Part shown: positions 7,581-11,642 of the stretch, piece after piece
Layout: every line of letters starts with the position of its first letter
Numbering within the stretch: position 1 is the first letter of the stretch
Origin: Burkholderiales bacterium RIFCSPHIGHO2_01_FULL_63_240
GTDB taxonomy: Bacteria; Pseudomonadota; Gammaproteobacteria; Burkholderiales; Burkholderiaceae_C
Length of the DNA: 64,000 bases
Direction: 5' to 3'
Assembly: GCA_001770725.1 (NCBI GenBank)
Contig: MERU01000007.1
Location: 108,924-172,923, forward strand
Translations under genes and position numbers: made by a program
The notes under the pieces: model-generated
Seen by the model: the letters and a program-made list of their open reading frames with translations, nothing else
Databases searched by the model: none
Told to the model about the DNA's origin: nothing

Positions 7581-8798
7581 TCATCCCTTGACACACACCA
7601 CCTGCTTGAGCGTGTGCACCACATCGACAAGGTCACGCTGAGCCTCCATCACCGCATCAATGTCCTTGTACGCGGCCGGGGTCTCATCGATCACATCCTT
7701 GTCCTTGCGGCACTCGACGCCCTCGGTGGCCGTACGGTGGTCAGCCAGAGTGAAGCGGCGCTTTGCCTCGCCACGGCTCATGACACGACCGGCCCCGTGT
7801 GAGCAACTCTCGAAGCTCTCTGGGTTGCCCTTGCCACGCACGATGTAGCTGCGCGCGCCCATGCTGCCCGGGATGATGCCCAGCTGACCGGCCTTGGCGC
7901 TCACCGCACCCTTGCGGGTCACAAAAATTTCCTCGCCAAAGTGATGCTCGCGCTGCACGTAGTTGTGGTGACAATTCACGGCCTCGATGTGGCTTTGGAA
8001 GTTCTTGCGGATCACGGTCTTGGCAGCCTCGATCACGCGGCGCATCATCACCTCACGGTTGATGGCGGCGAACTTCTGCGCCCAGCCGACGCCGCGTACG
8101 TAGTCACCAAAGTAGCGGCTGCCTTCTTCGAAGTAGGCCAGATCGCGGTCGGGCAGGTTGGCGTTGTTGCGCATCGCATCTTGCTTGGCCAGTTCGATGA
8201 ACATGGTGCCAATGAAGTTGCCCACGCCACGCGAACCTGAGTGCAGCATGAACCACACGGCACCTTGCTCGTCCAGGCAGACTTCGATGAAGTGGTTGCC
8301 CGTACCGAGCGTGCCCAGGTGATTGCGGTTGTTGGTCTTGGCGATCTTGGGATAGTCGCGGCACAGTTCGGTGAACTCGGGCTCCAGTTGCGCCCAGGCC
8401 GTGTCGACCGAACCTGGCACCTTTTGCCAGGCACCTGGATCACGGTTGCCTGGTGCGCGACCATGCGGCACGGCACGTTCGATGGCGGCGCGCAGCGGGC
8501 CCAGGTTGTCAGGCAGGTCTTCAGCTGTCAGCGTGGTCTTGCAGGCCATCATGCCGCAGCCGATGTCCACACCCACCGCAGCCGGGATGATGGCCTTGAT
8601 GGTGGGAATGACCGAACCGACGGTCGCTCCGATACCAAAGTGCACATCCGGCATGGCTGCAATGTGTTTGAACACGACAGGCAGACGGGCCGCATTGATG
8701 AGCTGGCGACGGGCTTCGTCTTCCACGGGCACACCGCGCGTCCACATCTTCACCGGCACGCCACCAAGCGTGTCTTCTTCGATGTAATTCGTTTCCAT
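7581..8798 (-). CDS. rtcB: RtcB-family RNA 3'-phosphate/2',3'-cyclic-phosphate ligase
   Basis: 405 aa. Hallmark motifs AAMPDVHFGIGATVGSV, GCGMMA, GTLGTGNHFIE, HSGSRG and SCSHGAGR. Confidence 0.95.
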   Translation of the reverse strand: METNYIEEDTLGGVPVKMWTRGVPVEDEARRQLINAARLPVVFKHIAAMPDVHFGIGATVGSVIPTIKAIIPAAVGVDIGCGMMACKTTLTAEDLPDNLGPLRAAIERAVPHGRAPGNRDPGAWQKVPGSVDTAWAQLEPEFTELCRDYPKIAKTNNRNHLGTLGTGNHFIEVCLDEQGAVWFMLHSGSRGVGNFIGTMFIELAKQDAMRNNANLPDRDLAYFEEGSRYFGDYVRGVGWAQKFAAINREVMMRRVIEAAKTVIRKNFQSHIEAVNCHHNYVQREHHFGEEIFVTRKGAVSAKAGQLGIIPGSMGARSYIVRGKGNPESFESCSHGAGRVMSRGEAKRRFTLADHRTATEGVECRKDKDVIDETPAAYKDIDAVMEAQRDLVDVVHTLKQVVCVKG

Positions 8799-8862: not shown

Positions 8863-10005
8863 CTAGGCCTTGAGCTTGACCAAGCCATTGAGGACCTGAT
8901 CCAGACCTCCGAACACGGAGATCTTGTCGATGCGCTCGGCAACACGCTCCAGCGTCTCCAGCTCCTTCATGCGCAAAGCGACAGGGTTGCCCTCCATCAC
9001 CTTGGCGGTGTTGAGCAAGGAACGCGTGGCAGCGGTTTCCTCACGGCGACGGATCACGTTGGCCTGAGCAGCCTTTTCGGCTTCAACGACTTGCGCCAGG
9101 ATGGTCTTCATCTCGCCGGGCAGTACGATGTCCTTCACGCCGGCTGTTTCCAGATCGATGCCATAAGCCACCAAGCGTGCCTTGACGTGTGCCATCACGA
9201 CCTCATCGATCACGGTCTTGTTCTCCAGCAGCTCATCGAGCGTGCGCGTACCCACGGCCGATCGCAAACCGAACTGCAGCTCACGGTACAGGTGTTCCGC
9301 GGGCTTTTGCAGCTGCGTGTAGGCCTTGAGTACATCGGTGAAGCGCCACGATGCCGACAGGTTCAGGCGCAGGCCGACCTTGTCCTTGGTGAGGATGTCC
9401 TGGCCGGACACCTCCACCACCTGCAGACGCAAGTCCACCAGCTCGACCGAAACGTTGCGGTTGTACTTCCAGAAGCCGTAAGAGCCCGGCTTCAGAAGCG
9501 AGTCCACCTTGCCGTCGACATGCAGCACGCCCACGCCGTACTCGGGCACCTGCACGGTCAGCACACCAATCAGACCAGCGACCTGGCGTTGACGCATCTG
9601 CGTCTGCGTCAGGCGCGCCACCAGTTCAGCAGGAAGCTCGGCGTGGTTGCTGATGTCCAGCACATCAACCTTGACCTCGTGCAGGCCCTTCCAGTACAGA
9701 CGGCGCGTGGTGGGCGCCAGCAACTCAACCAGTACACCGTTCTCATAGCGCAAGCCCACCTCGGTTTCCTTGAGGTCGACGCGCACGAACTCGGCTTCCA
9801 CCACAGCAGGCTCCTTGGCCATCAAATAGTCGGCCAGGCCGTGCGCGAAGGCGGACTGCTCCAGCGAGAATGTCTCGACACGCACATCGCTCAGTGCCGT
9901 GGCCAGCCAGTGACGGCCAGGCTGCAGCACGCGCTCGAAGTCGCCATTGCGCAGCAGCAGGCCACGCTCGTTCTTTTTGACAGTGAAACGTTTGAATCCC
10001 AACAT
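8863..10005 (-). CDS. SPFH/band-7 (slipin-like) protein with a ~200-aa N-terminal extension
   Basis: Start MLGFKRF at 10005 preceded by AAGGAGAAG. The C-terminal half carries an SPFH core and a coiled region (VVEAEKAAQANVIRRREETAATR...NPVALRMKELETLERVA). Confidence 0.8.
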   Translation of the reverse strand: MLGFKRFTVKKNERGLLLRNGDFERVLQPGRHWLATALSDVRVETFSLEQSAFAHGLADYLMAKEPAVVEAEFVRVDLKETEVGLRYENGVLVELLAPTTRRLYWKGLHEVKVDVLDISNHAELPAELVARLTQTQMRQRQVAGLIGVLTVQVPEYGVGVLHVDGKVDSLLKPGSYGFWKYNRNVSVELVDLRLQVVEVSGQDILTKDKVGLRLNLSASWRFTDVLKAYTQLQKPAEHLYRELQFGLRSAVGTRTLDELLENKTVIDEVVMAHVKARLVAYGIDLETAGVKDIVLPGEMKTILAQVVEAEKAAQANVIRRREETAATRSLLNTAKVMEGNPVALRMKELETLERVAERIDKISVFGGLDQVLNGLVKLKA

Positions 10006-10240
10006 GGGCTTCTCCTTCTTGTTTGTATGAGGGTGCCGATACAGCACTGGCTGCGGACAAGGAAGGCCTTGGCTCAGGCATGGCGGATTCGCGGTGTGTC
10101 TTCCTCCCAGATCGACACGTCGCTTGGCCACCTGCGCGAGCCACGCGTTTTCCTTGCACAAGCCACCAGCGCTGACAGATGGCAAGCCATCTGCGTTCGG
10201 CGGAGGTCTTTCGACCGGCTTTTTGGCAACCTTCGCAGGG

Positions 10241-10314
10241 TTGTTGGTACGGGAATCGAACCCGTGACAGACGCATTACAAGTGCGTTGCTCTACCCGAC
10301 TGAGCTAACCAATG
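10241..10314 (-). tRNA. tRNA-Thr(UGU)-like, with non-pairing 1:72 and 2:71
   Basis: Hand fold: D arm GCTC/GAGC, anticodon arm ACGCA-CTTGTAA-TGCGT, T arm ACGGG-TTCGATT-CCCGT. Acceptor CATTGGT/ACCAACA pairs at only 5 of 7 positions. No encoded CCA. Confidence 0.6.
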
Positions 10315-10516
10315 GGTGGCTGCTTGGGAATCGAACCCATCACCGTTGCCGGCGCTGACCACAGACAGCCCAATCAACCGTTTCCAACAGACGCGGCATG
10401 CACCGTGACAACAGGCTTGAACCTGGCCACAGCGCACCGGCGGGGCGGGCTTTCACCCAAACCCCTGACCTGTGAGCGCCCGCCTTTCACGGCAGACTCT
10501 TTGGCGCTTGAACCTC
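10313..10516 (-). ncRNA. Structured non-coding segment ending in a tRNA-like 3' module (T-arm + acceptor strand + CCA)
   Basis: 3' end reads ATGGG-TTCGATT-CCCAA-GCAGCCA-C-CCA (10313-10340). Internal T-arm-like hairpin CAGG-TTCAAG-CCTG (10412-10425). Two GTGAAAG hairpins. No local 5' tRNA half; the only complement (GTGGCTG) is at 10553-10559, inside the HNH 3' end. Confidence 0.3.
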
Positions 10517-11092
10517 TCAGTTCAAGCGCGATCCTTTTGGCAGGCGCGAAGCCAGCCACTCGTGTACATCGGCCCGGATGTGCCTGCCTTGCAGCAGGAA
10601 GTCTTCGAATCGACTGGGCACATAGGGCAGGTACAGCAATGGCATGCGGGCTTCCTCTGGCGTGCGGTTGGCCTTGGCAGCATTGCAGCCAGGGCAGGCC
10701 GTCACCAGATTCATCCACGATGTGGCACCGCCCCGAGAGGCCGGCACGATGTGCTCGCATTGCAGTACGCCCTCAGAGAAGCGATCACCGCAGTAGGCAC
10801 AAACACACCGGTCACGCCGAAAGAGCTTCAACCTGTTCAGCGACGGCGCAACCTCAAACAGGTTGATGCGCGAAGCGCCGTTGAGCGCCATGATGGGGAA
10901 GATTTCCATCACGGACGGGCGACCCGTTCGGGCATTGACGCCGCCCCGCAGACGGCGCAGCGGTCCGTCGCCGTCGACCCATGCCACCGAGGCACTGGCC
11001 AGATGGATGGCGGCCTGTTCGACCGTGATCCAGGCTTGTGGCGTGCCTTGAATGTCCAGTTGCAGGACATGCGTTGAGGTACTCGGTGACAT
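10517..11092 (-). CDS. HNH endonuclease (McrA/COG1403-like, ~191 aa)
   Basis: Start MSPSTS at 11092 follows AAGGAGGG by 6-7 nt. HNH core CAYCGDRF...CEHIVPASRGG..WMNLVTACPGCNAAKANRTPEEA. Confidence 0.85.
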   Translation of the reverse strand: MSPSTSTHVLQLDIQGTPQAWITVEQAAIHLASASVAWVDGDGPLRRLRGGVNARTGRPSVMEIFPIMALNGASRINLFEVAPSLNRLKLFRRDRCVCAYCGDRFSEGVLQCEHIVPASRGGATSWMNLVTACPGCNAAKANRTPEEARMPLLYLPYVPSRFEDFLLQGRHIRADVHEWLASRLPKGSRLN

Positions 11093-11433: not shown

Positions 11434-11642
11434 TCAAAAGCAGCCCGATGTCAGGCAACAGCGCTTGAAATGATTTGGTCGATCCGCAAGGGCATGGGTC
11501 GTTGCGTCCCAGCTTCTCGTGCAGGTACTTGTCACCATGCACGATGCGCTGACCACGCTTGACGCCTGTCTCAGACGGATAGCCCTTACGACGCTTGCTC
11601 GTGACCTCGAAAGCAAGCCTGTTCTTGGCGGTTGAATTTCAT
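11434..11642 (-). pseudogene. Small SEC-C-motif protein gene disrupted by two +1 frameshifts
   Basis: RBS AAGGAG plus ATG at 11642 opens an 18-codon frame. The next frame reads ...[55 protein letters not shown] third frame finishes [10 protein letters not shown]. Removing one A from an AAA run and one T from a TTT run restores a 68-aa ORF. Confidence 0.55.

Follow-up and report, generated by a model that had tools for sequence, protein, structure and literature searches.

The window analysed here is a 64,000-nucleotide (nt) stretch of contig MERU01000007.1 (assembly GCA_001770725.1) from a Burkholderiales bacterium, and all features of the locus under study lie on its minus strand. Read along that strand, six tRNA genes are followed by an HNH endonuclease gene, ~200 non-coding bases, a 'tRNA-Thr(UGU)', a 235-nt spacer, an SPFH/Band-7 gene and the RNA ligase gene rtcB. 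A sequence-only reading of the window had noted a half tRNA beside a crippled tRNA-Thr downstream of the HNH gene, and had correctly taken the ~200 nt between the HNH stop codon and the 'tRNA-Thr' as non-coding. These pieces make up the middle of a single composite structured RNA of ~480 nt (window ~10497-10035). From 5' to 3' it consists of a 5' core domain closed by a long-range helix, a first tRNA look-alike (module 1; reduced, with an N-CCA end), a second tRNA look-alike (module 2; a full cloverleaf) and a large 3' domain. When compared with Rfam 15, the region gave tRNA alone above threshold, and the composite RNA belongs to no Rfam family. The parts of the RNA, with hairpin P1 at its 5' edge, were as follows.

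10504..10529, minus: hairpin P1, GCGCUUGAAC / GUUCAAGCGC, with the HNH stop codon UGA (10519-10517) in its loop; from sequence, in HNH-type loci only
10373..10497, minus: 5' core domain; from RNAalifold and covariation
10497-10490 with 10380-10373, minus: P2, the closing long-range helix
10470-10468 with 10441-10439, minus: P6
~10465-10442, minus: hairpin P4, capped by a GNRA loop, GAAA
10438-10422 with 10415-10395, minus: P5, a long hairpin
10313..10371, minus: module 1; from sequence and covariation
10370-10365 with 10323-10318, minus: module 1 acceptor, GGCUGU / GCAGCC, 6/6 pairs
10364-10355, minus: module 1 loop without a D stem, with a conserved GG
10354-10341, minus: module 1 GNRA-capped stem CGCCG-GCAA-CGGUG, in place of an anticodon arm
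10339-10325, minus: module 1 T-arm, UGGG-UUCGAUU-CCCA
10317-10313, minus: module 1 3' end (A10317, C10316, CCA 10315-10313)
10241..10314, minus: module 2; from ARAGORN, with an Rfam tRNA call spanning 10314-10239 at 58.8 bits
~10035..10216, minus: 3' domain; from RNAalifold
10216-10205, minus: hairpin GGUC-GAAA-GACC
10201-10198 with 10038-10035, minus: closing helix of the 3' domain, GCCG / CGGC
10194-10173, minus: further hairpin of the 3' domain, which also holds a long multi-branched helix
10045-10031, minus: conserved motif CUGUA(A/U)CGGCACC, in 66 of 76 loci

Loci were gathered through the SPFH protein, which gave 336 relatives in genome contigs; 80 Burkholderiales loci were kept, spanning Aquabacterium, Piscinibacter, Ideonella, Acidovorax, Rhodoferax, Ramlibacter, Caenimonas, Ottowia and others. 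In each of the 80, the RNA was found immediately 5' of the SPFH gene. Over approximately 390 bases around the element, identity was 93-97% with four genomes of the genus and 71% with a fifth one. Comparison of the homologous regions, suggested in the sequence-only reading, revealed strong covariation in the core and the 3' domain, and covariation in both modules. The fold was conserved, neither module was kept as a decoding tRNA, the link to SPFH was constant and the HNH gene was dispensable.

When the core domain was folded with RNAalifold on 63 sequences, 29 pairs were obtained, 20 of them with compensatory change. On 86 sequences, 95.0% of cells were paired and 23 of the 29 pairs changed on both sides. 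The covariation score was 0.513, compared with 0.218 in shuffles (0 of 500 reached it) and 0.07-0.11 with slid partners, for which pairing fell to 37-47%. The junction motif GCUCACAGG and the motifs CCGGUG and AUGCCGC were invariant. Two hairpins with a shared GTGAAAG loop had been described in this region; one of them, GGGU-GAAA-GCCC, is present, whereas the GUGAAA 'loop' of the first is an internal junction beside P2. The local hairpin CUGCC-GUGAAA-GGCGG was considered in place of P2; both can be drawn, and P2 was retained with far more compensatory change. The local hairpin may be an alternative fold. The element CAGG-TTCAAG-CCTG, taken earlier as resembling a T-arm, does form a hairpin, but it is the tip of the covarying P5 and no T-arm.

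In module 1, the T-arm with its TTCGATT loop, followed by GCAGCC-A-C-CCA and ending at 10313, was present as described earlier. The accompanying statement that no local 5' half exists did not hold, since GGCUGU pairs 6/6 with GCAGCC and this pairing is conserved. A per-sequence test was used for the acceptor because indels blurred column-wise counts. The six bases after the T-arm paired 6/6 with a segment at a fixed position in 55 of 70 relatives, with more than 15 different stem sequences (among them GGGUCA/UGACCC, GGCCAU/AUGGCC and GGCACG/CGUGCC); in the shuffled control, 19% reached 6/6 at any position. In the T stem, 96% of cells were paired and 41 cells changed on both sides, and the N73-CCA tail was carried by ~85% of relatives. 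This covariation indicates that module 1 is under selection. An earlier proposal, that GUGGCUG within the last HNH codons closes with CAGCCAC to give a ~247-nt RNA, was not supported: the strand on the 5' side is coding sequence and does not vary, in contrast to the 3' strand; pairing is seen in 60% of cells, with double-sided change in 18 cells. At the position of module 1, Pseudomonas-like and more distant loci carry a complete cloverleaf of 75 nt whose 'anticodon' loop is tiny; in distant loci it is also called as a tRNA-like gene with a 2-nt 'anticodon'.

That module 1 is an attachment-site remnant had been among the earlier suggestions; island integration would then have left behind a duplicate of the 3' end of a tRNA or tmRNA gene of the chromosome. 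The locus is island-like, with composition borders remarked in the sequence-only reading, and a T-arm, acceptor and CCA are typical of such duplications. However, when module 1 was searched with blastn-short against the 99.99% complete genome, it found only itself, with a next best match of 16 nt; a second genomic copy, fixed beforehand as the criterion for this origin, was thus absent. ARAGORN found no tmRNA in the window, and module 1 has its own 5' strand, covaries across genera and holds a fixed place in a larger conserved RNA. We regard the chance of such an origin as practically negligible.

With the tRNA-like domain of tmRNA, mascRNA and viral tRNA-like structures, module 1 has in common the acceptor, the T-arm, the stemless D-loop with GG and the N73-CCA end; the mascRNA model scored 25-27 bits on module 1 in relatives. 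It differs from them in having no tag frame and no G3:U70, in its variable acceptor sequence and in its internal CCA, after which the next module begins within 1-2 nt. A permuted or two-piece tmRNA was rejected as an identity: none was reported by ARAGORN or Rfam, and no conserved tag frame was seen by eye.

Module 2 has a canonical D-arm, anticodon arm and T-arm and no 3' CCA. As the sequence-only reading had stated, and as ARAGORN and Rfam confirmed, the body of this 'tRNA-Thr(UGU)' is intact, positions 1:72 (C/A) and 2:71 (A/C) are unpaired and a CCA abuts it. The acceptor has 5 base pairs (bp; 10312-10308 with 10248-10244) and varies from 3 to 6 bp among orthologues, short of the seven of a decoding tRNA-Thr. 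The CCA of module 1 overlaps the two unpaired first positions of the module 2 gene, an arrangement conserved wherever module 1 ends in CCA. The D stem was invariant; covariation was seen in the anticodon stem, with 96.8% paired, and in the T stem, with 100%. By contrast with this constant body, the anticodon loop showed at least 20 identities or triplets among 84 loci, about a third of which have a GNRA tetraloop instead. Even in relatives 93-97% identical, the anticodon was UGU, CAG or AGU, and in one genome (G014) a GCAA tetraloop was found instead.

These data bear on the simplest alternative, namely that module 2 is the working tRNA-Thr(UGU) of the array and module 1 a decayed tRNA pseudogene. 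The Rfam score of 58.8 bits, the perfect D, anticodon and T arms and the position downstream of six array tRNAs all speak for it. Yet both end pairs are mismatched and the 3' CCA is missing, the anticodon differs between near-identical orthologues and gives way to a tetraloop in others, the shortened acceptor and the abutting CCA are themselves conserved, and module 1 covaries. Further, contig C9 of the same genome carries a normal tRNA-Thr(UGU), which has its CCA and whose acceptor is perfect. This alternative is very unlikely. Module 2 is no decoding tRNA and corresponds to the band-7-associated tRNA look-alike discussed below.

For the 3' domain, RNAalifold gave 61 pairs with 88.7% of cells paired, and 47 pairs had compensatory change. 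Compensatory cells numbered 566, compared with a shuffle mean of 182 (maximum 213) and ~100 with slid partners. The domain stops 18 nt short of the ribosome-binding site of the SPFH gene. A conserved apical loop, GGGAGG (Shine-Dalgarno-like), was seen within it at ~10100-10125.

The hairpin at 10529-10504, noted before as having the stop codon of HNH within its loop, is present. P1 is 10-11 bp long and its 5' arm is formed by the last HNH codons. At least 10 uninterrupted bp were found in 24 of 50 loci with an HNH-like 3' end, and the arms covaried in HNH-type loci (CCUGAGC/GCUCAGG, CCUUUGC/GCGAAGG, GGUUGAAC/GUUCAACC). The HNH gene itself was gone and the RNA kept in three loci in which the last HNH codons remain (L005 of genome G010, L034 and L037) and in all Acidovorax-type loci, which have no HNH at all. 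In the former three (L005, 300-400), the last ~20 HNH codons were retained, with homology beginning at the same point, between ...CACGA and (A/G)UGGCUGG; the junction in L005 sits at an ACAC microhomology. Judged from these sequences, the HNH cassette looks to have been precisely lost or gained.

That the RNA is a guide or partner of the HNH nuclease, in the manner of HEARO or the omega RNA of IscB, could be argued from the HNH frame ending inside P1 at the 5' edge of the RNA, and from the likeness of the HNH protein to the HNH domains of Cas9, IscB and PtuB, which holds at domain level only. The sequence-only reading had likewise listed a nuclease-associated RNA overlapping the 3' end of the gene. 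However, the RNA is retained where HNH is missing, which excludes both as a general explanation; moreover, the protein has 191 amino acids (aa) and no RuvC domain, and the region has no HEARO or other Rfam match. A guide function is therefore extremely improbable. A group I intron in a tRNA, with HNH as homing endonuclease, was also rejected: no tRNA 5' half lies upstream of HNH and no Rfam intron match was obtained.

The neighbouring genes were as follows.

12168-11724, minus: array tRNAs Asp, Phe, Arg, Pro and His; from ARAGORN
11383-11307, minus: array tRNA Glu; from ARAGORN
10517..11092, minus: HNH endonuclease gene, 191 aa, an optional neighbour outside the RNA; Pfam HNH_5/HNH
8863..10005, minus: SPFH/Band-7 gene, 380 aa; Pfam Band_7, 7.4e-29
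7581..8798, minus: RtcB RNA ligase gene, in the same orientation downstream of the SPFH gene; Pfam RtcB, 5.3e-128

Every isoacceptor of the array (Asp-GUC, Phe-GAA, Arg-ACG, Pro-UGG, His-GUG and Glu-UUC) was also present elsewhere in the genome, so the tRNAs of the island are spare copies. At position -1 the array tRNA-His has U, yet C73 is retained. A small reading frame with a SEC-C motif (DPCPCGS) lies between tRNA-His and tRNA-Glu (11434-11642); it was absent from the matching spacer of genomes G009 and G004, where the His-Glu gap is ~40 nt. In a related locus (L051, 218-346), an RtT RNA (RF00391) matched at 53.9 bits against a gathering score of 45, within the tRNA array upstream of the HNH/RNA/SPFH unit. 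The translated SPFH protein has no obvious membrane helix. Its first ~30 residues (FKRFTVKKNERGLLLRNGDFERVLQPGRHWL) resemble the usual start of an SPFH domain, well ahead of the Pfam match at residues 154-325, and this suggests a tandem or split SPFH fold. No RtcR gene was found in the genome.

A model of the 5' core domain (R1) was used on loci found through the SPFH protein. In its own genome R1 gave a single match, of 125.8 bits. Scores were 37-47 bits in loci with SPFH proteins 64-66% identical (L105-L108) and a weaker 14-18 bits in loci from other classes with SPFH ~40-45% identical (L110 and L115-L118). Core and tandem modules thus recur in other Pseudomonadota, and every R1 match in the distant loci lay immediately 5' of two tandem tRNA-like genes, indicating that the core-plus-tandem plan predates Burkholderiales. 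When 150 whole genomes (one per family across the class) were searched with R1, only the own genome matched; just 22 candidates per genome were scored, so this negative is weak.

Three studies, comprising river and sludge metatranscriptomes and the transcriptome of one organism, have RNA libraries with isolated contigs of 368-376 nt. These correspond to window positions 10484-10115 or 10480-10106 and bridge both modules; a fourth RNA library gave 10450-10230 at 100% identity. None of these contigs extends into the SPFH coding region, and 10485-10560 and 10006-10105 were uncovered, although non-coverage proves nothing. Together they give no more than a hint that the RNA is expressed as a stable species. 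The ends at 10115 and 10106 fall just before the GGGAGG loop of the 3' domain and could reflect a processing site or an assembly break. In an Acidovorax locus (L059), a divergent rtcR gene is followed by TGGCACG-CATC-TGGCA (2423-2441) with canonical -24/-12 sigma-54 spacing, and the predicted +1 is the first base of helix P2. In such relatives the RNA is therefore predicted, from promoter sequence, to start at an RtcR/sigma-54-type promoter.

Burroughs and Aravind (Nucleic Acids Res 2016) reportedly predicted a band-7-associated tRNA. As far as the accessible text of a later paper citing Burroughs and Aravind 2016 goes (bioRxiv 10.1101/312249), this b7a-tRNA is a predicted, unvalidated gene beside Band-7 and RtcB, put forward as the RNA cognate to the SPFH scaffolds of RtcB repair systems. 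It is the closest known thing to the RNA described here, and Rfam has no family for it. Both are tRNA-shaped, apparently non-decoding RNA genes next to Band-7/SPFH and rtcB, and here both the adjacency and the tRNA-likeness (58.8 bits) were found. They differ, to the extent that the citing paper's accessible text describes b7a-tRNA, in that the look-alike is here one of two tandem modules inside a ~480-nt RNA with covarying flanks. No characterisation of this RNA was found in the literature on RtcB with SPFH, Band-7 or tRNA-like RNA, or on PA4582.

A tRNA-mimic RNA of the kind that accompanies RtcB had also been suggested earlier, with bacterial Y RNAs as the example; the suggestion was right in kind, but the RNA is no Y RNA and its partner gene is SPFH/Band-7, not Ro. 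YrlA (RF02553), which belongs with Ro60/Rsr to rsr-yrlBA-rtcBA operons, likewise mimics tRNA and is transcribed together with rtcB; in some relatives this transcription is controlled by RtcR and sigma-54. In contrast, the present RNA has no Ro-binding terminal stem and its modules are not circularly permuted. The Rfam/Infernal check proposed in the sequence-only reading returned the tRNA call and a sub-threshold YrlA match at 10289-10344 (20.4 bits against a gathering score of 69). Such weak matches arise from the adjacency of a T-arm and a D-arm, and similar ones were seen between ordinary neighbouring tRNAs. No match to PF05731 (Ro/TROVE, Rsr) was found in the 99.99% complete genome, in which control searches did give matches; on these two grounds a Y RNA was ruled out. 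In Albitalea terrae (L045, 5915-6259), the region downstream of the same SPFH locus holds a true YrlA at 81.1 bits, along with another YrlA-like element at 37.7 bits and a weak match to YrlB, showing that YrlA and this RNA are distinct. Like GOLLD and ROOL, the RNA is a large multi-domain covarying RNA of unknown biochemistry near tRNA arrays or mobile elements; unlike them, it is smaller, carries embedded tRNA mimics and has a fixed SPFH-RtcB context, and neither family matched here in Rfam.

The explanation we favour, and hold to be probable with some reservation, is that the RNA is a stable partner of SPFH/RtcB, with tRNA mimics that recruit tRNA-handling enzymes or put them in position. 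Lying directly upstream of both genes, the RNA would be transcribed with SPFH/Band-7 and rtcB and then excised from the operon transcript as a stable RNA, by analogy with YrlA and YrlB from rsr-yrlBA-rtcBA. It would partner the cytosolic SPFH scaffold, and its two L-shaped mimics may recruit or position RtcB, or other enzymes that handle tRNA, while tRNA-like substrates damaged by nucleases are being repaired. SPFH and the RNA might then be the Band-7 counterpart of the Ro60-Y RNA pair.

Several points weigh against this explanation. Binding to SPFH or RtcB is deduced from gene order alone, and the RNA contigs cannot give ends, strand or abundance. Their ends fall within the predicted fold, leaving out the P2 5' strand and the distal 3' domain, so they do not define the mature species. 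Helix P3 (10484-10478 with ~10392-10386) showed no clean column-wise covariation and is at best a candidate, as is any pairing of the invariant junction motifs. When the 3' domain was searched with nhmmer, only same-family relatives were found and none in Pseudomonas-like or more distant loci, where it may be absent or too diverged. Finally, the RNA occupies the 5' untranslated region (UTR), a position with which a purely cis-regulatory role is equally compatible.

Such a role is spelled out in the main rival, which is possible though on balance improbable and is compatible with the favoured explanation: a cis-acting, damage-sensing leader in which the look-alikes bait anticodon nucleases or tRNA-directed toxins, and cleavage or binding remodels the leader and alters the stability or translation of SPFH-rtcB. 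The RNA fills the entire 5' UTR, its 3' domain ending 18 nt before the ribosome-binding site. The 7-nt anticodon-like loops of module 2 (often CU-NNN-AA), with at least 20 triplets on a constant body, fit a diversifying bait, and the six spare tRNAs at the locus duplicate chromosomal isoacceptors. A leader sensor would matter most in islands without RtcR, as in this genome. However, the GNRA tetraloop of about a third of orthologues cannot mimic an anticodon, in the consensus fold no sequestration of the ribosome-binding site is visible, no terminator-like element was seen by eye in the sequence, and the ending of the RNA contigs ahead of the coding region points to a separate stable RNA.

A bolder reading, which we consider rather doubtful, would make the whole ~480-nt RNA an uncatalogued class of large multi-domain bacterial RNA. 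It would assemble with soluble SPFH into a vault-like or Ro/Y-like particle, in which the CCA-joined mimics would serve as an RtcB docking platform for broken tRNAs or as sacrificial baits that report ribotoxins.

The substrates and cofactors of bacterial RtcB systems are still undefined, and their Band-7/SPFH branch rests on computational prediction. Within that branch, the predicted tRNA mimic is a single component of a far larger RNA that is strongly conserved and apparently expressed. Its architecture (core domain, two tRNA look-alikes and 3' domain) provides constructs and boundaries for pull-downs, structure work and genetics. For annotators, 'tRNA-Thr/Leu/Ile' genes called upstream of SPFH-rtcB are non-decoding. 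If the docking-platform or bait function is true, a cytosolic bacterial SPFH protein would for the first time have a function assigned to it, as would the predicted b7a RNA.

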